A stretch of 64,000 bases of DNA from Aminipila terrae (GCF_010120715.1 NZ_CP047591.1:2586303-2650302); one strand, 5' to 3'; positions 4,489 through 49,747 are shown, counted from the stretch's first letter. The notes: generated by a model not told the origin, from the sequence alone. A program made the numbers and translations.

Positions 4489-7068
4489 GTGATTACATCA
4501 GAAGAAATTAAACGCAGATTATGGGATGGAGCAAACGAGCTACGTGGTTCTATGGATGCAAGCCGATACAAGGACTATATGCTAGGCTTAATGTTCTATA
4601 AATTTTTAAGTGATAAAACTTTAGAAATATTCAAAGCAAGCGCAGTTAAGGGACCAGTAACAGAAGCTCAACTAGTGGAGGAGTATACTAAATCAAGAGA
4701 AGAATATGGCGAAGATTTAGACTTAATGATTCAAAAGGTGCTTGGCTACTATGTAAAACCAGAATATCTTTATCATACATGGCTGAAAGATATAAACTCA
4801 GGTAATTTTGAAGTTCAGAGAGTAACAGATAGCTTGAATTATTTTGAACGAACCCTTGCTGTATCTGGTGATTCAAATGATTTTAAAGGGTTATTTTCAA
4901 GTTCTACGCTTGACTTAACCGACACCGCATTAGGGAGCAATCTAAATGAGCGTAGCAAGAATATAAGGGCGTTAATTTTGTTATTCGCAGATTTGAATAT
5001 GGTGGCTTTACAAAAGGGTGATGTTCTTGGTGATGCCTACGAATATCTAATCGGACAATTCGCGATGGAATCTGGCAAAAAGGCAGGAGAGTTCTATACG
5101 CCTAGACAAGTCAGTGAGGTTATGGCACAAATCGTTGCCAAAACATCAAATATTGAATCTATATACGACCCTACAGTTGGATCCGGTTCTCTACTTCTTA
5201 CGGTTAAAAAACATTTGAGTCAAGAGGTTCAAAAGAGTCTAAGTTATTATGGGCAGGAAAAAAATACGGCGACATATAACTTAACGCGTATGAACTTGCT
5301 ACTTCATGGCGTTCGACCTGAAAAAATGACCATTAAAAATGGAGATACGCTATCACATGATTGGCCCGAAGATCCAGACCGCCCAAATGAAGGTGTATTG
5401 TTCGATGCGGTGGTAATGAACCCGCCTTACTCTGCGAAGAATTGGAATAAAGCAGGCTTGAAAGGCAGCGAACCAAGGTTCGAAATTGTAGATGGCATAC
5501 TCCCTCCAGATTCAAAGGGCGATTTTGCATTTTTATTGCATGGATTATATCACTTAGGACAAAACGGGACAATGGCTATTGTATTACCTCACGGTGTTCT
5601 GTTTCGTGGTTCGTCTGAGAGTGAAATCCGCAAGAGATTGTTGGAGAAAAATCGCATTGATGCCATTATCGGCTTACCTAGTAACCTATTTACTAATACA
5701 GGTATCCCGGTATGTATTCTCATTCTGAAAAAAAACAGAGAAGTTGGGGAGCCTGTTCTTGTGATTGATGCATCAAAGAATTTTATCAAGAACGGAAAGC
5801 AAAATATACTACAAGAAAAAGATATTGCTAAAATTGTCGATGCTTATATTAACCGTGCTGAGATAAAGGGATATAGCCATTTGGCTACTCGAGAAGAGAT
5901 CATCGAAAACGATTTTAACATGAATATCCCAAGATATGTTGAAGTGGTTGATAGTGAAATTGCACATGATGTAGATGGGCATTTATATGGCGGTATTCCG
6001 CAGAAAAATATTGATGATTTAATAGTTCTACAAAAAACAGTAAAAGATATTATAGATAGTTGCCTAGCGCCAATTAGAGATGGATACTTTGTACTAATAA
6101 AACCTATAAGTGAACTGACAGCTACGGTATTGAGCGATAGTCGTGTCATTCAAAAGTCACAGGAAATAAAGGCAAAAACAGAAGACTTCATTGCGACATA
6201 CTGGGAAGCCTTACGTAAAATTGATGATGTATTAGAAATAAATCCGTTGATGGAAGAAATGTTATCTCACATCAAGGAGCTTTTATCAGGTGTTGAATTC
6301 ATTGATGTCTATGATGGATATCAGATAGTGGCTGAAATTTGGAAGAATGCTTTAACTCATGATACCGAGTTGATTGCAGGAAGTGATTTCTATACAGCGG
6401 GTCGTACTCGTGAACCGAACATGGTAACAAAGGGCACGGGAAGTAACAAACGTGAAGAGCAAGATGGTTGGATTGGAGCAATTGTTCCTAATGATTTGAT
6501 AGCTAAGAGGTTATATAGCAAGGAGCTTCAGGCAATAGAAGACAAAAAAACTCATGTAAGTGAAATTGAATCAGAGCTTACCGAATTAGTTGAAGCTGCT
6601 AAAGTTGAAGATAGTGACGAAAATGACGCTTTATATGATGCTCTAAAGAAAAATGAAGACGACGAACCCCAAGATTCATTTGAAAATAAATTGGTTAAAG
6701 CAGAGCTCAAAAAGGCAATAAAGAAAACCACAAAGTATGATTTACTTAAGAAAGTTGATAATTTAATAGAGGAAAAGTCTGATTTAGGCAAAAAAATCAA
6801 ATACGAAGAGAAAAAACTCAAAGAGGCTATTTATGAAAGAATCCTTGTACTGACTGATGAAGAAATCGATAAACTTATATTTGAAAAATGGTTTGGTACT
6901 ACGGTTGCTGATTTAGTCAAATTGGTTGAAATACCGCTAAAAGAGGAAATTGCTACTTTGGAAATGCTAAACAATCGTTATGCGAATAAACTATCTGATA
7001 TTGATGATGAGATTAATAAGCTAGAAAGTGATTTGGAACTCTTGATGAGTGAATTGGTGGTGCTGTAG
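4489..7068 (+). CDS. hsdM: Type I restriction-modification system, DNA methyltransferase subunit M (long form, 859 aa)
   Basis: N6-adenine MTase motifs (AdoMet region DPTVGSGSLL; catalytic VVMNPPYS). C-terminal ~340 aa is a charged coiled-coil-like extension. GTG start after the RBS ggaggag. Confidence 0.9.
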   Translation: MITSEEIKRRLWDGANELRGSMDASRYKDYMLGLMFYKFLSDKTLEIFKASAVKGPVTEAQLVEEYTKSREEYGEDLDLMIQKVLGYYVKPEYLYHTWLKDINSGNFEVQRVTDSLNYFERTLAVSGDSNDFKGLFSSSTLDLTDTALGSNLNERSKNIRALILLFADLNMVALQKGDVLGDAYEYLIGQFAMESGKKAGEFYTPRQVSEVMAQIVAKTSNIESIYDPTVGSGSLLLTVKKHLSQEVQKSLSYYGQEKNTATYNLTRMNLLLHGVRPEKMTIKNGDTLSHDWPEDPDRPNEGVLFDAVVMNPPYSAKNWNKAGLKGSEPRFEIVDGILPPDSKGDFAFLLHGLYHLGQNGTMAIVLPHGVLFRGSSESEIRKRLLEKNRIDAIIGLPSNLFTNTGIPVCILILKKNREVGEPVLVIDASKNFIKNGKQNILQEKDIAKIVDAYINRAEIKGYSHLATREEIIENDFNMNIPRYVEVVDSEIAHDVDGHLYGGIPQKNIDDLIVLQKTVKDIIDSCLAPIRDGYFVLIKPISELTATVLSDSRVIQKSQEIKAKTEDFIATYWEALRKIDDVLEINPLMEEMLSHIKELLSGVEFIDVYDGYQIVAEIWKNALTHDTELIAGSDFYTAGRTREPNMVTKGTGSNKREEQDGWIGAIVPNDLIAKRLYSKELQAIEDKKTHVSEIESELTELVEAAKVEDSDENDALYDALKKNEDDEPQDSFENKLVKAELKKAIKKTTKYDLLKKVDNLIEEKSDLGKKIKYEEKKLKEAIYERILVLTDEEIDKLIFEKWFGTTVADLVKLVEIPLKEEIATLEMLNNRYANKLSDIDDEINKLESDLELLMSELVVL

Positions 7069-8337
7069 ATGGACGAAAATAAAAAATTAGTACCCAGAAG
7101 ACGTTTCAAGGAATTTCAAAATACTAATGATTGGGAACAGCGTAAGTTAGAGGATATATACGATAAGATAAGAAATGCATTCGTTGGTACAGCGACACCA
7201 TATTACATACCTCAAGGTAATTTTTATTTAGAATCAAACAATGTTAAAGATGGTCAGATTAATAGAAATAGTGAAATTTTTATAAATGACGAGTTTTATT
7301 TACGACAAAAGGACAATTGGTTACGAACTGGTGATATGGTTATGGTTCAGTCTGGACATGTTGGACATGCAGCTGTAATTCCGCCTGAACTCAATAACTC
7401 TGCAGCTCATGCGTTAATCATCTTTTCAAATCCAAAAGAAATTGTTGACCCATATTTTCTGAATTATCAGTATCAGACTTCAAACTATAAGAAAGCAATT
7501 GATAATATTACCACAGGTAATACTATTAAGCACATTCTTTCATCTGAAATGAAAAAGTTCACAGTTTTTTTGACCAAAATCGAAGAACAAAATAAAATTA
7601 GTGAGTTTTTTATAGGCCTCGACAACCTTATCACCCTTCATCAGCGTAAGTTAGAAAAGACAAAAGCATTAAAATCTGCATTTTTATCAGAAATGTTCCC
7701 AGCGCAAGGAGAGCTGGTGCCGAAACGCCGATTTGCAGAGTTTACTGGCGATTGGGAACAGCATAAGGTTTCCGAATTAATAAAGGATATTGCTGATGGA
7801 CCATTTGGAAGTAATCTGAAAGTAGTACATTATACAGATGAAAAAGAGGCTCGAATTATACAACTAAGCAACATTGGAGAAGGTGGTTGGCAAGACGAAA
7901 ATGTACGTTATACAACATTTGAACATGCCAAGGAAATTAAGAGATGTATAGTTGAACCGGGTGAACTTGTAATGGCAAAAATGATGCCATCAGGGCTTAC
8001 AATTGAGCGACCAAACACTGATAAAATGTACGTTCTTTCATCAGATGCAGTTAGAATAAAAATTAATGAAATGCTGATTGATACAAAATACTTTGTTTAC
8101 ATGACAAAGTGTGAATATTTTCTTAATCAAATTAATAACGATGCTCAAGGAAGCACACGTACAAGAACAAGTATTAGTAAAATAAGAATGATGGATATTC
8201 CAGTTCCGTCTATACAAGAACAAAAAAGAATCGGCCTGTGCTTTCAACAACTAGACAACCTTATCAACCTTCATCAGCGTAAGTTAGAAAAATTGCAAAA
8301 TATTAAAAAGGCATACTTGAATGAGTTGCTTATATAG
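7069..8337 (+). CDS. hsdS: Type I R-M specificity subunit S
   Basis: 422 aa with two target-recognition halves. Each ends in the conserved repeat LDNLITLHQRKLEK (one at 7612-7656, one at 8251-8295). ATG overlaps the hsdM stop. Confidence 0.85.
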   Translation: MDENKKLVPRRRFKEFQNTNDWEQRKLEDIYDKIRNAFVGTATPYYIPQGNFYLESNNVKDGQINRNSEIFINDEFYLRQKDNWLRTGDMVMVQSGHVGHAAVIPPELNNSAAHALIIFSNPKEIVDPYFLNYQYQTSNYKKAIDNITTGNTIKHILSSEMKKFTVFLTKIEEQNKISEFFIGLDNLITLHQRKLEKTKALKSAFLSEMFPAQGELVPKRRFAEFTGDWEQHKVSELIKDIADGPFGSNLKVVHYTDEKEARIIQLSNIGEGGWQDENVRYTTFEHAKEIKRCIVEPGELVMAKMMPSGLTIERPNTDKMYVLSSDAVRIKINEMLIDTKYFVYMTKCEYFLNQINNDAQGSTRTRTSISKIRMMDIPVPSIQEQKRIGLCFQQLDNLINLHQRKLEKLQNIKKAYLNELLI

Positions 8338-8352
8338 GAAGGAGCTTAAGTC

Positions 8353-11300
8353 ATGAGCAATGCACCAAAGAATGCTTCTGAAAAAGCATTTCAAGAAAAC
8401 TTTGTTAAAGAACTTACTAAGTACAAATGGGAAAGTCCTGATTTTCTTAATGGCAATAAGCAAAAGGTTACAGTAGATGATTTGACTAAGCACTGGCGAA
8501 CAGAACTGAATCGTATGAATTCGGATCAGCTTGAAGGTATCCCTCTGACAGATGGTGAGTTCAATCAAGTTATGGTAAAGGTTAAGCAAATCAGCAACAG
8601 CTATGAAGCCGCTAAAATTCTAGCAATTGAAGAGTCAAAAGGAAAGATTGACGGCATTTATAGAGAGGATAATCCGAAGATAACCAGAAGACAAATTACA
8701 TTGACAATCTTCAAAAAAGCAGAAGTACGAGGCGGAGATTCAAGTTATAGAATAGCTCGTGAAGTTGTAACGCCAAATGATAACCGCTTTGATATTGTCT
8801 TGCTAATTAATGGCTTACCTTTAATTAATATTGAACAAAAACGTACAGACAAATCTCTAGATGAAGCATTTGGACAGTTTGTTAGATATTTCCGTGATGG
8901 GGAGTACACAAATTGTTTCATGGCATTTTCTCAGATGATGGTTATTACGTCTGAAATAGAGACTCGTTATTTTGCTACACCAAAATCGCTAGCTGATTTT
9001 AATACTAGCTTTGTATTTCATTGGTCAGATAAGAAAAATAAACAAATTAACAATTGGAAACAGGTCGTAGAACATTTTCTTATGATTCCTATGGCGCATC
9101 AAATGGTTGGTGATTATCTCGTTATTGATGAAGCAAAGGAAGAAGAAAATAGACGTCATATGCTGATGCGTCCTTATCAAGTATATGCCCTTCAAGCAGT
9201 TGAAGGTGCTGCTTTCGGGTGGGACAATGAGGAGAGGGTTCCGCATGGTGGTTTTATATGGCATACAACCGGTTCAGGTAAAACCATTACAAGTTTTAAG
9301 ACCGCACTCTTTTTATCAACACGGGCAGGGTTCGATAAAGTGGTTTTTTTAGTAGACAGACGTGAGCTTGATACCAAAACGAGTGACAATTTTAAAGCCT
9401 ATGCTGAATATGAGCCTGTTTCGGTAGATGAGACGAAGCATACATATAATCTAAAAAAACAATTAAAGTCACCTAAAAACGGTATTATCGTAACGACCAC
9501 GTTTAAGTTGAATGGTCTTGTAAAAGAGATGGAAGAGGCTCATGATAATAGTTTGGCAGATAAAAAAATGGTGTTTATTATTGATGAAGCCCATCGGACC
9601 ACTATGGGCCAAATGATGGGAACAATAAAAAACTATTTTAAGAAAAATGGCCTATTCTTTGGATTTACGGGAACACCACTTTTTGATGAAAATAAGGTCA
9701 AAGGAAAAGTAAATGAGAAGAGTGAGGTCATTAACACAACTGAAAAACTCTTTGGACCGAGCTTACATGACTATACAATTGATCAAGCTATTTCTGATGG
9801 TAATGTTTTAGGTTTTAACGTGGACTATATCAACACGGGAGAGTTTAAAAATTACGAAGATTTACGTGATCAACTTATAGAGAAAATTCAAGAAGAAGAG
9901 CCGGATGAGACAAGGAGAGATATTGAACGTTTGGTGCAAAGCTGGTCCGAAGCAGAGGTGGAATCCCAAGCGAAGAAACGAAATATCCTTAAATACCAAG
10001 ATGAAACGCATATTCCTAGAGTTGCAGAAGAAATCCTTGCTAATTGGGGGAAGCAATCACAAAACCGCGAGTTCAATGCAATCTTAACAGTTGCTTATAA
10101 AAATCGTGTAATTGCATATTATAATGAGTTTAAGAAACAACTGAAAGAACGTGATGCGAAGTTAAATATAGCGATGACGTTTAGTTTTGGAAATGAGAAT
10201 GACCCGGATAACATAGATCCTGAAATCATAAAAGGGATGTTTAAGGACTATTCTGATTTTACAGGAATTGAATTTATCGTAGGGGATAAAAGGCACGGTG
10301 AAGATGCTTATTTTGAGGATGTTGTAGAACGAGCGACTCGTGGTGGAAGTGGAAGAAATGAAAAAAATATAGACTTAGTAATTGTTGCTGACCAACTTTT
10401 GACGGGATATGATTCGAAGCGACTTAACACGTTGTATGTTGACCGAAATTTGGAACTGCAAGGGCTAATTCAAGCCTATTCCCGTACAAATCGAGTGTTT
10501 GGTAAAACTAAGGAATTCGGGAGTATTGTTAATTTTCAATATCCAAAAATGACAGAGAAAATCGTGAACAAAGCGTTGGAACTTTACGGTAGTGGTGGAA
10601 AGAGTAGTCCTGCAATTGTTGACCTCTACTCAACAGCAGTTAAGAAGTTCAAAATTAAGATTGGAGAGATGATTCTAACACTGCCAGACCCCACAGAATG
10701 GGCAACTCTTAAAAATGATGAAAGGAAAAAACAAAATTTTATTCTTACCTTTAAAGAGTCTGCCGATCAATTGAATCTAGTGATGCAATATTATGAGTTT
10801 CACTGGGACGATAGTACTTTTGGCATAACAGAGCACATTTGGATGCAGTATATTGGTGCATATAAGAATCTGACGCATAAACCTGGCACTTCAACACCAT
10901 CACAGGTTATCGTTAGGCCGCTTGTAGGTAAAACAAAATTGGCAGGGACTCAAGTGATAGATGCTGCTCATATTTTAAGCTTGATTGGCTCCAAGGTTGG
11001 AAATGTGGACGGTATTCAAACTGTTGATGATGAAACTTTGAGGATTATTCATGAGCAAATACAGGAACTTAGTAATATGGGTGAAGATGAGCAAGCGTTG
11101 CTTTTAAAAGAGTTTGTTAATACAGAGTTGGTTCCGGGGAATTTATCTAGTAATTTGAACTTTGATGAAGCCTTTGAAGCATGGAAAAAATCAGACAAAA
11201 GAAGAGTGTTGAGATTTTTGCTGAAAAGTGGGGAGTAGATGCCGAGTTGCTTAGTAAATCTTTATCTTCCTATTCTGATTCTCAGCCAGATTTTGTTCCG

Positions 11301-28812: not shown

Positions 28813-30063
28813 TTGAGTGAATTTTCAGAGCTGATTAAGAAATTTGATAAGATTAGAGACTACATGCGAGAGTTCTATGTATATGGCTTTAAATCTCGCG
28901 AGGATTATGATAAAAAGAGCCTTCGCAGTTATGATAACGAAAAACGCAGGATAGAAAGTTACCTTTCTGATTATATGTCATTTCGTCACGATGAAAATAA
29001 TAAAAATATTTTTATATCGATAGATAGTTCTGATATACCGACCAATCCTCTTTATCGTGCTTTTAAAGCTAAATCATTTACTAAAAATGATATTACTTTA
29101 AATTTTATAATTCTTGATATTCTTGATGGTGGAGAGAGACATTCTGCAAATGAGGTAGCTGATAAAATTGCAGATGAATATCTAACGTACTTTGAAAACC
29201 CAGTGATATGGGATTTATCAACGGTAAGGAACAAGCTTTCTGAATATGTTAATCTTGGAATACTACAAACGGAAAAAGATGGGAAAAGGTTACTATACTC
29301 ACTGAAAAAAACAGACATTAATTTAGATGAACTTTGCGACGCACTGGCGTTTTTCAGCGAGATCTCTCCTCTAGGAGTTGTTGGGAGTTTTTTACTTGAC
29401 AAATGCAATTATAATAATAGCATTTTATCTTTTAAGCACCATTATATTATGCATGCATTAGAAAGCGAAATTGTTTATACACTCCTTCATGCAATTCATA
29501 ATAAAGAAAAAGTGGAAATCAAAAACCATAGCCCTCGCTCTGATAGGGATATAATCCTTGAAATCATACCGCTCAAATTTCTTATAAGCGCCCAAGGAGG
29601 GAGAAGATATCTTTGTGCCTACAGTTCAAAATTTAGAGCGATTGTAGATTTCAGATTAGATTACATAATGTCTGTTAAAGTATTGGGAAAAGCAAATAAT
29701 TATACTGAGCATTACGAAAAGCTAGAACGGATACTTTCATGTACATGGAGTGCTTCCTTTGGCAATGCTAAAAGACTCGAATGGTTAAAGATGAAGCTTA
29801 GTATTCCGCATAATGAACGGTTCATTGTAAATCGCATTGAGCGTGAGGGTAGGCACGGCAAGCTTACGCAAATTGATGAAACAACATATGAATATTTTAT
29901 TGAAGTATTTGACACAATGGAAATGATGCCTTGGATCAGAACCTTTATTGGCAGGATTATTTCCATTGAGAGTAGCAATATAGAAGTAACACAGACCTTT
30001 TATTCTGATTTGGAGAAGATGTATCAATTATACAATGGAGGTGATGGGAATGCTGTTCAGTGA
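28813..30063 (+). CDS. WYL-domain transcriptional regulator (wHTH-WYL), TTG start
   Basis: WYL core GGRRYLCAYSSKFRAIVDFRLDYIMSV (R/W-Y-L ... FRLDRI-type motif). N-terminal HTH-like segment. Confidence 0.55.
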   Translation: MSEFSELIKKFDKIRDYMREFYVYGFKSREDYDKKSLRSYDNEKRRIESYLSDYMSFRHDENNKNIFISIDSSDIPTNPLYRAFKAKSFTKNDITLNFIILDILDGGERHSANEVADKIADEYLTYFENPVIWDLSTVRNKLSEYVNLGILQTEKDGKRLLYSLKKTDINLDELCDALAFFSEISPLGVVGSFLLDKCNYNNSILSFKHHYIMHALESEIVYTLLHAIHNKEKVEIKNHSPRSDRDIILEIIPLKFLISAQGGRRYLCAYSSKFRAIVDFRLDYIMSVKVLGKANNYTEHYEKLERILSCTWSASFGNAKRLEWLKMKLSIPHNERFIVNRIEREGRHGKLTQIDETTYEYFIEVFDTMEMMPWIRTFIGRIISIESSNIEVTQTFYSDLEKMYQLYNGGDGNAVQ

Positions 30064-30961
30064 AATTTATAGTGCCTACTACAATGCTGTTGCTCATCTT
30101 ATAAGCAAAGCTATTGACGGAGATCTTAATGAAAAAACGGCAAGTGATCTTATTCGAGATTCAGCATTCTCGGAAAGCTTTGTATATATTCTTAATGCAA
30201 TTAAAAATGAGGAATGGCAGGTTATAAACAAAGAGCTCAAAACTCCTATCAAACATAAACCATCTATGCCACTAACTACACTTCAGCTTAGCTTTTTAAA
30301 AGCAATCAGTCTGGATGCTAGGTTTGCACTGTTTTCAGAAGGGATTAAAGGGCTTGAAGGCATAGCACCTCTGTATGTTGACAAGGACTTTTATTACACA
30401 GACATAATTAAAGATGGTGACCCTTATGAAAGCGATGAATATAGAAAAAATTTTAAAACAGTTCTGCAGGCCTTAACGGATAAAAGAAAGCTGCTGGTTT
30501 CCTTTAAAAGTGGGAAAGGACATACACACAAGAATACATATGTGCCAAGAAAACTGGAATACTCTCAAAAGGATGATAAGTTTAGGCTGATATGCAAAGG
30601 AAATTATAAGATGGTGGTAATAAACTTAGCAAGAATTACCAACTGCCAACTAGGAGAGCACTTTGAAGAAGCTGCAATAAAACCATATAATAGAAAGAAA
30701 AGCTCAGTTGTATTGGAAATTATAGACGAACGGAATGCACTTGAACGTTCAATGCTCCATTTCGCTAACTTTGAAAAGGAAACGAAGCAAATAGAAAAAG
30801 ATATATACCAAATGAAAATTATATACAATGGGGAGGATGAAACAGAGGTCTTAATCAGGGTATTATCCTTCGGGCCGATGCTAAAAGTATTAGAGCCGAA
30901 AGCTTTTACAGATCAAATTAAACAAAGATTATCAAATCAAGAAAAGTTGCGAGTTTTATAA
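30050..30961 (+). CDS. WYL/WCX-domain regulator, paralogous partner of the upstream WYL gene
   Basis: KFRLICKGNYKMVVINLARI (WYL-like). C-terminal VLSFGPMLKVLEPKAFTDQIKQRL matches the WCX domain. Start set at ATG 30050 after ggaggtga. Confidence 0.5.
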   Translation: MLFSEIYSAYYNAVAHLISKAIDGDLNEKTASDLIRDSAFSESFVYILNAIKNEEWQVINKELKTPIKHKPSMPLTTLQLSFLKAISLDARFALFSEGIKGLEGIAPLYVDKDFYYTDIIKDGDPYESDEYRKNFKTVLQALTDKRKLLVSFKSGKGHTHKNTYVPRKLEYSQKDDKFRLICKGNYKMVVINLARITNCQLGEHFEEAAIKPYNRKKSSVVLEIIDERNALERSMLHFANFEKETKQIEKDIYQMKIIYNGEDETEVLIRVLSFGPMLKVLEPKAFTDQIKQRLSNQEKLRVL

Positions 30962-31029
30962 AGTTCGCAACTTTTTTTCCATGATAAAGGATAAATTTTC
31001 CTGTAATATTAGTTTGCAAGGTTGCTTTT

Positions 31030-31200
31030 GCGGGAAGATAAAAATATTCTTCTGCGGTGCCCGAGGTGTTACCAGAGGGTATACCAAGTAAGGCTTGCCC
31101 GAAATGCAGGTTCAATTCCTGCTCTAAGCAAAAAGCTTAGCCATGGTTTGGAAACTTCTACGTGAGTTCGAATCTCACCGGAACAAAATTGTTCTGCTAG
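31030..31200 (+). ncRNA. candidate structured RNA with two tRNA-like T-arm hairpins (GCAGG-TTCAATT-CCTGC and GTGAG-TTCGAAT-CTCAC); Y-RNA-like or tRNA-like element
   Basis: Two canonical T-stem-loops 40 nt apart without canonical acceptor stems. Flanking hairpin ctaagc-aaaaa-gcttag. The minus-strand ORF 31069-31341 translates them as ...GIEPAF..., a typical artefact of tRNA-like DNA. Confidence 0.3.
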
Positions 31201-31451
31201 CGGTTTAGTGAAGTTGTAAAATCTATTAAGAAGATAGGTTAAATGGAAAAGGAAAGTGAGCAGATTATCCGGCTGAACAACCAGCGAGCGTGACTTTGCC
31301 TTGCCGAAGAGTGGATACCGATGATGTTTATATAAGCCCAAAGCTTTGCTTCCGGTTTATATATAATACATCTTAAACTCTTTGCCGCAAAAGTAATGCG
31401 GATAATTTGCAACTACACAAAAACAAAATACCCTATATGGAGGTAAATAAT

Positions 31452-32549
31452 ATGAAAATGATAATTAATGAAAACCAAAGAGGATTGCTTTTTAAGGATG
31501 GAAAATTTCTAAAAATGCTTGTACCAGGTAAGTATACATTTTTTAATAAGCAGAAAAAGGTAGTGGTTGTAAATACTTCGGAAGAGTTTAAGCTTACGGG
31601 ATATGACTTGTCTATTTTCCTAAAGAATGAAGAGCTTGCAAAACAGCTTGCTGTTGTGGACGTAAAAGATGAAACACTTGTACTTCATTATATAAATGGT
31701 AAGTTTAGTGATTGTCTGCAAAGTGGCAAATATGCCTATTGGACAATATTTGATCAACATGAGTTTAAGGAAATTGATATTAAAAACCCAGAAGTGGATG
31801 AGAGTATTTCAAAGTTTATTTTTACGTTTATCCCAAGAAAGTATTTTTTCAAGATTGAGGTAGCTCAATATCAGAAGGCAAGACTTTATTTTGATCAAAA
31901 GTATGTCAAGCTACTTGATGAGGGTACCTATTATTTCTGGAATAATGGCACTAAAATTGAGGTTGGCTTTGCTGACACAAGACTTATGCAGATGGATATT
32001 GCGGGACAAGAAATTTTAACCCTTGATAAAGTTGCATTGAGAATCAACTTCGTCTGCCATTATAAAATTATGGACTATGTGAAAATTTACACCGAAATTG
32101 AAGATTTTGAACAGCAGATGCATGTTACCTTGCAGCTTGCTCTTCGTGAATATATAGGCAAGTACCGTTTAGATGAGATTCTTGAAAATAAAGAGCAAAT
32201 ATCAAAATTGGCATATCAAAAACTCAAAGAGAAGGAAGGAGATTATTTTATCAAGGTTGTAGACGCAGGTGTCAAGGATGTCATTCTTCCTGGAGAAATA
32301 CGTGATATAATGAATACTGTGCTTATCGCAGAGAAAAAAGCGCAGGCAAATGTAATCACAAGACGCGAGGAAGTTGCATCAACAAGAAGCTTGCTTAACA
32401 CTGCAAAGCTTATGGAAGAAAATCAAACTTTGTATAAGCTTAAAGAACTAGAATATCTTGAAAAAATATGTGAGAATGTAGGCAGTATCAGCGTAAGTGG
32501 TGGAACAGATCTACTCTCACAATTGACCAAAATACTTAGAGGTGCTTAA
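31452..32549 (+). CDS. SPFH/band-7 (slipin-like) domain protein with an N-terminal domain of unknown function
   Basis: RBS ggaggtaaa before ATG 31452. The C-terminal half matches the SPFH fold region (KVALRINF...EIRDIMNTVLIAEKKAQANVI...). Confidence 0.6.
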   Translation: MKMIINENQRGLLFKDGKFLKMLVPGKYTFFNKQKKVVVVNTSEEFKLTGYDLSIFLKNEELAKQLAVVDVKDETLVLHYINGKFSDCLQSGKYAYWTIFDQHEFKEIDIKNPEVDESISKFIFTFIPRKYFFKIEVAQYQKARLYFDQKYVKLLDEGTYYFWNNGTKIEVGFADTRLMQMDIAGQEILTLDKVALRINFVCHYKIMDYVKIYTEIEDFEQQMHVTLQLALREYIGKYRLDEILENKEQISKLAYQKLKEKEGDYFIKVVDAGVKDVILPGEIRDIMNTVLIAEKKAQANVITRREEVASTRSLLNTAKLMEENQTLYKLKELEYLEKICENVGSISVSGGTDLLSQLTKILRGA

Positions 32550-32570: not shown

Positions 32571-33809
32571 ATGTTCAGCAAATCCCTCAAAAAGAAGGTG
32601 AAAATAATGTTTGAAATAAAGGGTGAATTTACTACCGCGAAAGTGTTCACAGAAAATATAGAAGAGATTGCAATTGCACAAATTAAACAGTTGTGTGATA
32701 TGGAATATACATATAAAAGTAAAGTCCGTATTATGCCGGATGTACACGCAGGTGCAGGTTGTACGATTGGTACGACCATGACCATTTTCGATAAGGTTGT
32801 ACCTAATCTTGTTGGTGTGGATATCGGCTGTGGGATGGAGACAATCCAGATTGCAGAGAAACATATTGAACTTACCAAACTGGATAAGCTGATTTATGAA
32901 AAAATACCATCTGGAATGAACATCAGGGATACTATCCATAAATACAATGATGAAATAGACTTTAATGAGCTTAAATGCAAGGATAAAGTGAATCTTGACA
33001 GGGCAACAAGAAGCATAGGTACTCTTGGCGGAGGAAATCATTTTATAGAGGTTGATAAGGATTCTGAAGGAAATTTATATGTGGTTGTTCATTCTGGCAG
33101 CCGCCATTTAGGAAATGAGGTAGCAAAACTGTATCAGGATTTAGGTTATCAAAGATTGAATGGAAATGACCAAAGAGCACTTAATAGCTTGATTGCCCAA
33201 TATAAGGCGCAAGGCAGAGAAAAGGAAATTCAGTCAGCTATAAAGGAACTTAAAAAACAAGTAATTAGCAGCATTCCTCATTCGCTTGCTTATGTCAGTG
33301 AGGATTTGTTTAATGACTATATCCATGATATGCAAATCATCCAATACTTTGCTGAGCTTAACCGCAAGGCGATGGTAAATGAAATTATAAAAGGTATGAA
33401 ACTTGAGGTGATAGATCAATTTACGACAACACACAACTACATTGATACCAATGCAATGATTTTGCGTAAGGGTGCAGTTTCTGCAAAATTAGGTGAAAAA
33501 CTTTTAATACCTATCAATATGCGTGACGGAAGTCTAATCTGTGTTGGAAAAGGTAATGAAGACTGGAATTGTTCTGCACCACACGGAGCAGGTAGACTGA
33601 TGAGCAGGACCCAGGCACGAAACACCTTTACCGTATCTGAATTTAAAAATCAGATGAAGGATATTTATACAACTTCGGTAAACAAGAATACACTTGATGA
33701 ATGCCCTATGGCATATAAAGATATGAAAGACATCGTGGATAACATTGGTCCCACTGCAGATATCATTGGAATAATAAAACCTATATATAATTTCAAGGCG
33801 GGAGAATAA
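32571..33809 (+). CDS. rtcB: RNA-splicing ligase RtcB (3'-phosphate/5'-OH RNA ligase)
   Basis: Motifs MPDVHAGAGCTIGT, GGGNHF, HNY and APHGAGR. An alternative start at ATG 32607 has a stronger RBS. Confidence 0.85.
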   Translation: MFSKSLKKKVKIMFEIKGEFTTAKVFTENIEEIAIAQIKQLCDMEYTYKSKVRIMPDVHAGAGCTIGTTMTIFDKVVPNLVGVDIGCGMETIQIAEKHIELTKLDKLIYEKIPSGMNIRDTIHKYNDEIDFNELKCKDKVNLDRATRSIGTLGGGNHFIEVDKDSEGNLYVVVHSGSRHLGNEVAKLYQDLGYQRLNGNDQRALNSLIAQYKAQGREKEIQSAIKELKKQVISSIPHSLAYVSEDLFNDYIHDMQIIQYFAELNRKAMVNEIIKGMKLEVIDQFTTTHNYIDTNAMILRKGAVSAKLGEKLLIPINMRDGSLICVGKGNEDWNCSAPHGAGRLMSRTQARNTFTVSEFKNQMKDIYTTSVNKNTLDECPMAYKDMKDIVDNIGPTADIIGIIKPIYNFKAGE

Positions 33810-34567
33810 TGAAAGAAGAAATAATAAAAAGATTAGAACAAATTGAAGAAAAAGAAAAAGTGAAAATACTGTATGCTGTTGAGTCTGGAAGTAGAGCTTG
33901 GGGATTTGCGTCACCTGACAGTGACTATGATGTACGTTTTATCTATTTAAGGCAAAAAGAGTTTTATTTGAAGTTAGAAAAAACCCGCGATGTTATTGAA
34001 GTGCCAATAAATGATATTCTTGATATCAATGGGTGGGATTTTCAAAAAGCGTTAAGACTCTTACATACTTCAAATCCTACGCTTTTTGAATGGACCAACT
34101 CACCCGTTATATACAAAACTACACGATTTTTTGAAGAATTTAAGGATCATATCAATGATTACTTTAAAGCAAAATCAGGGCTTTACCATTATCTTAATAC
34201 TGCAGCGAGTAATTACAGAGAATACTTAAAGGGGGATTTTGTAAAAGCAAAGAAGTATTTTTATGTAATAAGGCCAATTCTGGCGTGCAAGTGGATATTA
34301 AAAGAGAACACGCCACCTCCTATGCTCTTTACAGATTTGGCGGAAAGTGTACTTGATGAGGAGTTAAAGCCAGTTATTGAAAAACTTCTTGAAATGAAAA
34401 TGTCATTGCCTGAGATTGGCCAAATACCAAAGATTAATCAACTTAATCAGTATATTGAGAAGAATTTAATTCAATTAAAAGAAGAAATTGATAGTTTACT
34501 AAGAAATGATAGCAATGATTTTGAACAGCTAAATCGTATTTTTTTAGAAGCATTGGAGTTGATATAG
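33809..34567 (+). CDS. Pol-beta-superfamily nucleotidyltransferase (COG3541-like)
   Basis: GSRAWGFASPDSDYDVRF motif (hG[GS]...DxD). Confidence 0.6.
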   Translation: MKEEIIKRLEQIEEKEKVKILYAVESGSRAWGFASPDSDYDVRFIYLRQKEFYLKLEKTRDVIEVPINDILDINGWDFQKALRLLHTSNPTLFEWTNSPVIYKTTRFFEEFKDHINDYFKAKSGLYHYLNTAASNYREYLKGDFVKAKKYFYVIRPILACKWILKENTPPPMLFTDLAESVLDEELKPVIEKLLEMKMSLPEIGQIPKINQLNQYIEKNLIQLKEEIDSLLRNDSNDFEQLNRIFLEALELI

Positions 34568-49186: not shown

Positions 49187-49263
49187 GGCGGTGTAGCTTA
49201 GTTGGCTAGAGCGTCCGGTTCATACCCGGAAGGTCGGTGGTTCGAATCCACTCGCCGCTACCA
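49187..49263 (+). tRNA. tRNA-Met (CAT), elongator type
   Basis: GGCGGTGTAGC...CCGGTTCATACCCGG...GGTTCGAATCC...CGCCGCTACCA. Confidence 0.85.
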
Positions 49264-49270
49264 TTAAAAT

Positions 49271-49346
49271 GGGCGTTTAGCTCAGCTGGGAGAGCATCTG
49301 CCTTACAAGCAGAGGGTCATAGGTTCGAGCCCTATAACGCCCACCA
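49271..49346 (+). tRNA. tRNA-Val (TAC)
   Basis: GGGCGTTTAGCTCAGCTGGGAGAGC...CCTTACAAG...GGTTCGAGCCC...ACGCCCACCA. Confidence 0.85.
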
Positions 49347-49358
49347 TTTTAATAATAT

Positions 49359-49435
49359 GGCCTGGTAGTTCAGTTGGTTAGAATGCCAGCCTGTCACGCT
49401 GGAGGTCGTCGGTTCGAGCCCGATCCAGGTCGCCA
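49359..49435 (+). tRNA. tRNA-Asp (GTC)
   Basis: GGCCTGGTAGTTCAGTTGGTTAGAATGCCAGCCTGTCACGCTGG...GGTTCGAGCCC...CCAGGTCGCCA. Confidence 0.85.
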
Positions 49436-49473
49436 TTTTTATTAAAATAAAATTTAATAAAAAGCCATTATAT

Positions 49474-49550
49474 GGTGGGTATCGTCAAGTGGTTAAGACA
49501 CAGGGTTGTGGCTCCTGTATACGTGGGTTCGACTCCCACTATCCACCCCA
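49474..49550 (+). tRNA. tRNA-His (GTG) with a G-1
   Basis: G-GTGGGTATCGTCAAGTGGTTAAGAC...GGTTGTGGC...GGTTCGACTCCC...TATCCACCCCA. Confidence 0.8.
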
Positions 49551-49567
49551 TATAAAAACTTTGTTGT

Positions 49568-49642
49568 TGGGGTATCGCCAAGCGGTAAGGCAATGGATTC
49601 TGATTCCATCATGCGCAGGTTCGAATCCTGCTACCCTAGCCA
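49568..49642 (+). tRNA. tRNA-Gln (CTG)
   Basis: TGGGGTATCGCCAAGCGGTAAGGCAATGGATTCTGATTCCAT...GGTTCGAATCC...TACCCTAGCCA. Confidence 0.85.
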
Positions 49643-49672
49643 ATTTATTTGCTGGTCGTAAGGCTGGCTTGC

Positions 49673-49747
<75 letters not shown>

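Follow-up and report, generated by a model that had tools for sequence, protein, structure and literature searches.

YrlA, a Y RNA of bacteria, is encoded inside the rsr-yrlBA-rtcBA operon, and it binds Rsr (Chen et al. 2014; Wang et al. 2018). The criteria used to recognize it are a 5' GNCGAAN0-1G motif, an optional V hairpin, a T-arm, closed acceptor-like stem (AS) and D-arm in that order, a stem that joins the two ends of the RNA, and a Ro60 gene at a distance of no more than 4 kb (Chen et al. 2014). The sequence of the tRNA-like domain of Salmonella YrlA is available from a crystallographic study (Wang et al. 2018; PDB 6cu1; bioRxiv 10.1101/312249). A second tRNA-like noncoding RNA, b7a-tRNA, was predicted by Burroughs and Aravind (2016, NAR) beside genes for Band-7 proteins and RtcB, where, as relayed by Wang et al. 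(2018), a cofactor role was proposed for it. According to that same account, b7a-tRNA is unvalidated and is occasionally swapped with YrlA. Here, we describe a conserved, covarying, multidomain RNA that carries one or two tRNA-shaped modules. It was found in a 64,000-nt stretch of the Aminipila terrae chromosome (NZ_CP047591.1:2586303-2650302; hereafter, the window), and its features are numbered from the first nucleotide of that stretch, all on the plus strand.

The RNA lies in a 490-nt gap between the second of two WYL-type genes and an SPFH gene. On the upstream side, a WYL-domain gene (28813-30063; Pfam WYL; 416 aa) overlaps by 29 nt a second, WYL/WCX-like gene (30035-30961; Pfam WYL plus a weak WCX match; 308 aa). 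This duo recalls a PafB/PafC-like pair and occupies the place that is held by RtcR/sigma-54 control in Proteobacteria. Downstream, Pfam matches identify genes for an SPFH/Band-7 protein (31452-32549), RtcB (32571-33809), and RlaP (33809-34567), and the SPFH sequence matches that of an Aminipila terrae slipin family protein with 100% identity. The sequence-only reading of this DNA had remarked on the absence of an rsr (Ro60) gene, and no TROVE match was obtained among the operon neighbors or in ten of the 15 window open reading frames (ORFs) of at least 400 aa, these ten being 400-680 aa long. Two more of the 15 are the WYL and RtcB genes.

Signals flanking the gap suggest how the RNA may be transcribed. 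The second WYL-type gene ends in an inverted repeat that resembles a terminator, AGTTGCGA...TTCGCAACT, with a T-run after it (30945-30978), with weak Rfam matches of the terminator type. This repeat and the subsequent TTTTTTCC(A/G)TGATAAA (30945-30995) are conserved at the DNA level in many loci from several families, about 30-60 nt upstream of the -10 box of the RNA. Because of this conservation and placement, the region may be an operator for the WYL regulators. An extended -10 promoter-like sequence, TGTAATAT, occupies 31002-31009, and alignment of related loci places TGgTAAAAT, TAGAAT, or TATACT at the matching offset, consistent with a putative promoter. A consensus promoter scan, which demands a -35 hexamer, did not flag this box. 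The RNA appears to start at its own promoter, just past the terminator of the WYL genes. At the other end, a Shine-Dalgarno sequence, GGAGG, and the SPFH ATG (31440-31454) are preceded by an unpaired A-rich linker, and the ATG is 42 nt downstream of the last helix of the RNA. No terminator-like site ahead of the SPFH gene was found in 30800-31600, and the SPFH, RtcB, and RlaP genes appear to be co-transcribed with the RNA.

Within the gap, the window contains two tandem copies of a circularly permuted tRNA-like module that consists of a T-arm, a closed acceptor-like hairpin, and a D-arm with a GG loop. The sequence-only reading had called two T-stem-loops and one hairpin, all of which are present where it placed them: T-arm 1, GCAGG-TTCAATT-CCTGC (31106-31122); T-arm 2, GTGAG-TTCGAAT-CTCAC (31162-31178); and CTAAGC-aaaaa-GCTTAG (31124-31140). 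It had missed a second closed hairpin, GGAACA-aaau-UGUUCU (31180-31195), along with two D-arm-like hairpins, CCA-UGGUU-UGG (31141-31151) and CUA-GCGGUU-UAG (31197-31208). With these elements added, module 1 (31106-31151) and module 2 (31162-31208) have the same composition, each with an AS of 6 bp. That there are two modules follows from the double match of R1, a covariance model of the T, AS, and D helices that was built from related loci without the window. R1 scored 43.1 bits on module 2 (31156-31229; E = 1e-13 over 616 kb) and 24.9 bits on module 1 (31106-31151; E = 2.5e-6). In close relatives, module 1 is conserved in three loci. Two of these, L085 and L086, keep both modules beside SPFH proteins that are 87% and 82% identical to that of the window, and the third, L083 (85% identical), has one. 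Compensatory changes affect module 2 in L085/L086, where GUGAG/CUCAC becomes GUGGG/CCCAC and CUA/UAG becomes CCA/UGG.

The proposal that these elements are tRNA-mimic domains and not tRNA genes held up against standard annotation tools. ARAGORN called no tRNA at the site, its only predictions in the window being six tRNAs at 49187-49747, a cluster of Met, Val, Asp, His, Gln, and Cys species. Rfam 15 assigned no family to the site at gathering thresholds, and at E<=10 only the bare T-arms matched, to the tmRNA T-arm, with 9.4 and 7.1 bits. Thus, neither program found a cloverleaf of the tRNA type, in which a 7-bp acceptor stem is open and an anticodon arm is present. R1 gave weak matches of about 20 bits at junctions in the tRNA cluster (window positions 49517 and 49609), which are false positives; false positives of this kind have been noted before (Chen et al. 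2014). Such matches at real tandem tRNAs hint at an origin of the module from a tRNA dimer. Folding of 31020-31215 alone was not significant (z = -1.38), so that only comparative data and the full-length fold are informative; the window RNA of about 400 nt (31013-31412) folds with z = -4.07.

The comparative data came from 80 genomic loci that encode SPFH relatives with 51-70% identity, mostly from Oscillospiraceae, Lachnospiraceae, Erysipelotrichaceae, and unclassified Clostridia. Viral contigs yielded no relative of the SPFH protein. Most of the 80 loci have a canonical T-arm, at a distance of 250-440 nt upstream from the SPFH start. This arm is followed by a hairpin of variable sequence, typically 6-7 bp, then by a CCA-GUGGUU-UGG hairpin, and then by P4, which is usually capped by a tetraloop. 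In an alignment of 27 module sequences, 89.8% of positions in the T, AS, and D helices were paired, as opposed to 26-50% in slid controls. Furthermore, 10 of the 15 module pairs changed on both sides, and none of 500 shuffles reached the observed covariation. About 60 of 75 loci had an R1 match ahead of the SPFH gene, with scores of 29-84 bits. This conservation and these scores place the T-arm pattern beyond chance; conserved structure in homologous loci, whose absence was part of what the sequence-only reading said would refute it, was recovered.

Each helix of the module has its own pattern of variation. The T stem-loop, GGUUCRAnYCC, has a 5-bp stem that is paired in 100% of cases and shows CG/UA and GC/AU exchanges, and the UUCGAAU T-loop has a G53:C61-type pair. 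In the AS helix, six of seven pairs change on both sides, and its length ranges from 4 bp to long extensions (L021, L057, and L077). The D stem-loop, CCA-GUGGUU-UGG, has a loop containing GG and a stem that also occurs as CCG/CGG, CCU/AGG, or CUA/UAG. The nucleotide that precedes the T-stem and the one that opens the D-loop form a C:G combination in 50 of 62 sequences, U:A in three, and another combination in nine, a trend that would suit a Levitt-type pair, with few independent changes.

Annotation of the related loci gave a similar picture. Rfam searches of 21 related loci found no family at the site, and ARAGORN reported a tRNA at the RNA site in only 4 of 58, placing the anticodon at positions 33-40 and assigning a different identity each time. 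These odd calls (L023 3168-3247, L029 3111-3187, L050 3129-3208, and L053 3163-3234) were for tRNA-Asp, -His, -Lys, and -Asn, respectively, and treated as an anticodon arm the hairpin that precedes the T-arm, in whose 7-nt loop there are U33- and R37-like positions. Such calls could end up annotated as tRNA genes. They are accounted for by a cloverleaf in which the 3' strand of helix P2 and the 5' strand of AS serve as an acceptor stem. We rejected this fold, since it is feasible only in one Oscillospiraceae-type subgroup and fails in the window and in Lachnospiraceae-type loci.

The modules belong to a larger conserved structured RNA of about 400 nt, predicted from its sequence to extend from about 31013 to 31409. 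Hence the 31030-31200 element of the sequence-only reading is real, while its boundaries are too narrow, and the small RNA of roughly 100 to 170 nt that was expected there is better seen as part of a molecule with two further conserved domains. The first of these is a 5' three-way junction in which helix A encloses P1 and P2. The 5' strand of helix A, UUUGCAAG (31013-31020), is at or near the 5' end of the RNA and pairs with 31094-31104, a 3' strand that consists of CUUGC, a CCG bulge, and AAA and runs straight into T-arm 1. In this helix, the 5'-terminal GCAAG is matched with the CUUGC just before the T-arm. Across loci, the duplex energy of cognate strands was -10.8 kcal/mol versus -8.6 kcal/mol for non-cognate strands, a difference of 2.2 kcal/mol that was equaled in none of 5000 permutations. 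Compensatory variants of the helix are found in L018, L038 (UGUAAAA/UUUUUACA), L053 (UCACAAGG/CUUUGUGA), and L055 (GUAAGG/CUUUAC).

Hairpins P1 and P2 together are 94.6% paired across the alignment. P1 (GGAAGA/UUCUUC; 31033-31053) is 86% paired, and three of its four pairs change on both sides. P2 (31056-31085) is a bulged helix, GG-UGCCC-[GGU loop ACC]-GGGUA-UA-CC, with 99% of cells paired; its general form across loci is GG-UGCNN-[GGN loop NCC]-NNGUA-UG-CC. P2 is present in about 50 loci, has an invariant core (U-A, G.U, and GUAUGC), and is more conserved than any other element of the RNA; its pair 78:96 reads AU in 21 loci but GC in 19 others. Two other pairings were considered and dropped. 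A local P3 hairpin (CAAG...CUUG) was rejected because its CUUGC strand shows covariation with GCAAG at the 5' terminus. The CCUUGC motif of the 3' domain was a second potential partner for the 5' end, but this pairing received no support from L018 or L038/L041 and was rejected as well, since the motif pairs locally with GCCGC.

Downstream of the D-arm of module 2 is P4, AUCUAU-UAAGAAG-AUAGGU (31221-31239), whose position is taken in other loci by a hairpin capped with GAAA or UUCG. The 3' domain follows (31261-31409; about 150 nt), with six helical segments defined by the alignment, RNAalifold, and the centroid fold. They include H0 (31261-71/31399-409), Ha (31289-97/31390-98), Hb (31305-12/31377-84), and Hc (31320-23/31369-72), along with a GCCUUGC/GCCGC junction and a distal hairpin that has a C..CC internal loop near its tip. 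RNAalifold on the full-length alignment and the centroid fold of the window RNA gave matching helices in this domain. Its internal loops are invariant (GCCUUGC/GCCGC, GGAUACC/CUYAA, and C..CC), the second of them reading GGAUACC/UUAA in the window. Both partners change in 41 of 46 pairs, and the share of paired cells is 83.9%, compared with about 40% in slid controls.

The tRNA-like modules share much of their design with YrlA. They align colinearly with the Salmonella YrlA crystallization construct, with T-arm, closed acceptor-like stem, and D-arm in an identical 5'-to-3' order. Both RNAs have a tRNA-like T-loop, GG in the D-loop, an acceptor-like stem of variable length, and an optional hairpin 5' of the T-arm, and both are encoded in an rtcB operon. 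A Levitt-type position that varies between C:G and U:A in YrlA corresponds to the combination tabulated above, in which C:G predominates and independent changes are few. However, the RNA described here is much larger than YrlA and departs from it in other ways. The GNCGAAN0-1G motif is absent from the RNA of the window, and in related loci it occurs in 6 of 51 without a fixed position; the conserved 5' element in its place is GGUGCRYGAGG. There is no 5'/3' closing stem replacing the anticodon arm. Instead, the segment after the D-arm forms its own closed hairpin, P4, and the segment before the T-arm pairs with the 5' end of the RNA as helix A. These two features put the break in the tRNA chain in the variable region and not in the anticodon loop. 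The AS-D linker is C(G) here and UA in YrlA, and a nearby Ro60 gene is lacking. With the Ro-binding motif, end-to-end stem, and Ro60 neighbor all absent, sequence comparison indicates that the RNA is an analog of YrlA and not a member of its family.

The sequence-only reading had proposed a Y-RNA-like RNA of the YrlA/YrlB kind, of which the design of T-arm, closed AS, and D-arm stands; the 5' motif, the closing stem, and the Ro60 gene do not, and b7a-tRNA is closer than either YrlA or YrlB. The covariance-model search of Rfam that it recommended returned no Y RNA match at E<=10 and no tRNA at the site. As described in Wang et al. (2018), b7a-tRNA is a noncoding RNA with tRNA features beside a Band-7/SPFH gene and RtcB, which is exactly the context here. 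It is also described there as strongly resembling authentic tRNA, whereas we find a permuted closed-acceptor module in an RNA of about 400 nt with P2 and a 3' domain. By that description, our RNA is most likely the Firmicute form of the predicted Band-7-associated tRNA-like RNA. The b7a-tRNA family is absent from Rfam 15, and in the literature searched we found no mention of it beyond Wang et al. (2018). What may be new in our RNA is the duplication of the module in tandem, along with the extended architecture. Other tRNA mimics are more distant. The tRNA-like domain of tmRNA and viral tRNA-like structures likewise mimic tRNA by means of a T-arm/D-loop elbow, but their acceptor end is open and can be aminoacylated; in our RNA, the acceptor-like stem is closed and a CCA end is lacking.

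Conservation across loci reveals that the RNA is modular. A strong R1 match and the 3'-domain motif occurred together in 55 of the 75 loci with enough upstream sequence, and in another 12 of the 75 the 3' motif was accompanied by a weak module match or none. Four loci (L028, L043, L070, and L076) keep P2 and the 3' domain but have a degenerate or missing tRNA-like module, which indicates that the mimic is not essential everywhere. One of these loci, L043, carries GTGGGTTAGAAAACCAC without AS or D. Gene order varies in a similar way. Upstream, 58 of 67 loci have WYL-type homologs; downstream, 49 of 68 have RtcB and 6 of 66 have RlaP, so that the SPFH gene and the WYL pair are the constant neighbors of the RNA. 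RtcB is not adjacent downstream of SPFH in 19 of 68 loci, nor in L083/L084 or L048. The RNA is nevertheless retained beside SPFH in L083/L084, in L048, and in most of those 19 (e.g., L014, L015, and L018), four of which (L013, L056, L070, and L072) have no strong tRNA-like module. The gene after SPFH is an FAA hydrolase gene in L083 and tRNA-Ser in L048.

Additional genes were noted around the RNA in some loci. Between the RNA and SPFH, a conserved ORF of 215 aa is present in L034 (2802-3449) and about 10 others (L006, L020, L030, L064, L068, L073, L078, and so on), with no Pfam or NCBIfam family. A DUF2828/DUF7788 protein of 533 aa, from a putatively TROVE-like family, is encoded directly upstream of the RNA in 3 of 80 loci (L034 570-2171, L064, and L074); sequence searches of the PDB and NCBIfam returned no match to it. 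The DUF2828/DUF7788 gene of L034 is immediately preceded by a genuine tRNA (472-541; 41 bits with Rfam).

A related arrangement exists outside the Firmicutes. Full-length relatives of the SPFH protein, with 31-35% identity, are encoded in Burkholderia, Citrobacter, and E. coli. In the last of these, genes for a slipin and an RlaP-like nucleotidyltransferase lie between yjbD and lysC in 1,629 of 5,426 complete genomes (roughly 30%). This island consists of SPFH and RlaP only, without an adjacent RtcB, and adjoins a zeta-toxin gene. In the 530-nt region upstream of the slipin gene, R1 gave a match of 23.4 bits (L081 3679-3992; L082) to an element that combines a T-arm with a closed hairpin of 7 bp and a weak D-like element. 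No annotated RNA, ARAGORN tRNA, or Rfam family was present in that region, which also contains a sigma-54-type sequence, TGGCACGCTTCTCGCA (TGGCAC-N5-TCGCA), as read by eye.

What might such an RNA do? Judging from the locus and its conservation, we see an even chance that the tandem permuted mimics, as part of a Band-7-associated leader RNA, would serve the SPFH/RtcB repair system as its RNA subunit or scaffold. The invariant, bulged P2 and the 3' domain could form a protein-binding platform, and the SPFH gene is the most constant neighbor of the RNA. The T-loop/D-loop elbow, in turn, would offer a tRNA-shaped docking surface for tRNA-recognizing enzymes, be they RtcB, RlaP, or host enzymes such as TruB or RNase P. 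Such an arrangement of RNA and protein would parallel the tethering of an effector protein by Ro60 and Y RNA, the analogy from which the partner or scaffold role is drawn. An AlphaFold model of the SPFH protein (mean pLDDT of 58.6) contained no recognizable RNA-binding fold, and its N-terminal beta domain (pLDDT of about 80) matched only SPFH proteins in the PDB. Possible, if on the doubtful side, is the further reading that the mimics are an accessory, duplicable, and losable part of an otherwise undescribed class of RNAs of about 400 nt. The core of this class would be P2 and the 3' domain, and it would partner with soluble SPFH (stomatin-like) proteins under the control of WYL regulators in Firmicutes or sigma-54 in E. 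coli. If so, it would represent a new Ro/Y-RNA-like ribonucleoprotein of the RNA-damage response, testable in roughly 30% of E. coli strains.

The RNA is always a 5' leader in position, which fits a cis-regulatory role equally well. The main rival explanation, which we regard as rather unlikely, is an autoregulatory leader acting by tRNA mimicry, where RtcB, RlaP, or the SPFH protein binds and represses its own mRNA until damaged tRNAs titrate the protein away and the operon is de-repressed, much as in the thrS leader of E. coli. The invariable same-strand position, the lack of a terminator before SPFH, the short distance from the last helix to the start codon (42 nt), and the presence of tRNA-shaped modules would all suit such a mechanism, and thrS provides the precedent of a gene that encodes a tRNA-binding product and has an element of tRNA shape in its 5' leader. 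Yet what the thrS leader mimics is the anticodon arm, and the mimic overlaps with the ribosome-binding site. In our RNA, it is the elbow and acceptor side that are mimicked, and the Shine-Dalgarno sequence is left free in its unpaired A-rich linker, with no conserved helix to sequester it. Moreover, about 400 nt with three covarying domains and invariant loops goes far beyond the needs of known mimicry leaders, and the tRNA-like part can be lost while the rest of the RNA is kept. We consider it improbable that the RNA is a sensor or decoy for RNA-damaging toxins, in which the mimic would be cut by tRNA-attacking ribotoxins and cleavage, or religation by RtcB, would change what becomes of the leader or send a signal to the WYL regulators. 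The anticodon loop is the usual target of tRNA-cutting toxins, and the modules are without one, even if the RNA-repair operon, the WYL-type regulators upstream in 58 of 67 loci, and the position of the E. coli island beside a zeta-toxin gene are what a sensor would lead one to expect. In line with this idea, Salmonella RtcR is reported to sense tRNA fragments (PMC7790460).

The remaining explanations concern the identity of the RNA. That it is a true YrlA-type Y RNA, binding a Ro60 protein encoded elsewhere in the genome, strikes us as very improbable. The order of T, closed acceptor, and D elements is that of YrlA, the Levitt-type position is mostly C:G (50/62), and 3 of 80 loci have a DUF2828/DUF7788 gene directly ahead of the RNA; on the other hand, GNCGAAN0-1G is not conserved, no stem closes the 5' and 3' ends, and neither a TROVE match (operon neighbors and the ten ORFs of 400-680 aa) nor an Rfam Y RNA match at E<=10 was obtained. 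We give hardly any credence to the idea that the modules are functionless remains of decayed tandem tRNA genes or of tRNA-derived integration sites. Although real tandem tRNAs do produce R1 matches of about 20 bits (49517 and 49609), this explanation is already contradicted by covariation: the elements sit within a larger covarying RNA, and loci from Oscillospiraceae, Lachnospiraceae, Erysipelotrichaceae, and E. coli preserve their position and structure, with compensatory changes.

These results bear on the targets of bacterial RtcB repair operons and on why tRNA-shaped RNAs such as YrlA and b7a-tRNA accompany them. Comparative sequence analysis suggests that the Band-7-associated RNA is a large, well-supported structured RNA. 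Because its mimic shares the permuted design of YrlA without Ro60, the common functional feature would seem to be the tRNA shape itself and not Ro binding. About 1,600 complete E. coli genomes carry a related element within a sigma-54-type island, which makes genetics and biochemistry accessible. In addition, the family merits an Rfam model, since genome annotation misses the RNA or occasionally miscalls it as tRNA. Two observations concern the surroundings of the loci. Large ORFs at window positions 4489-11238, which include a type I restriction-modification specificity subunit (7069-8337), probably constitute a type I restriction-modification system about 20 kb upstream of the repair operon. 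In L072, from a Defluviitaleaceae metagenome-assembled genome, an Rfam match to a group II intron catalytic domain (20-96; 47.2 bits) lies upstream of the locus.
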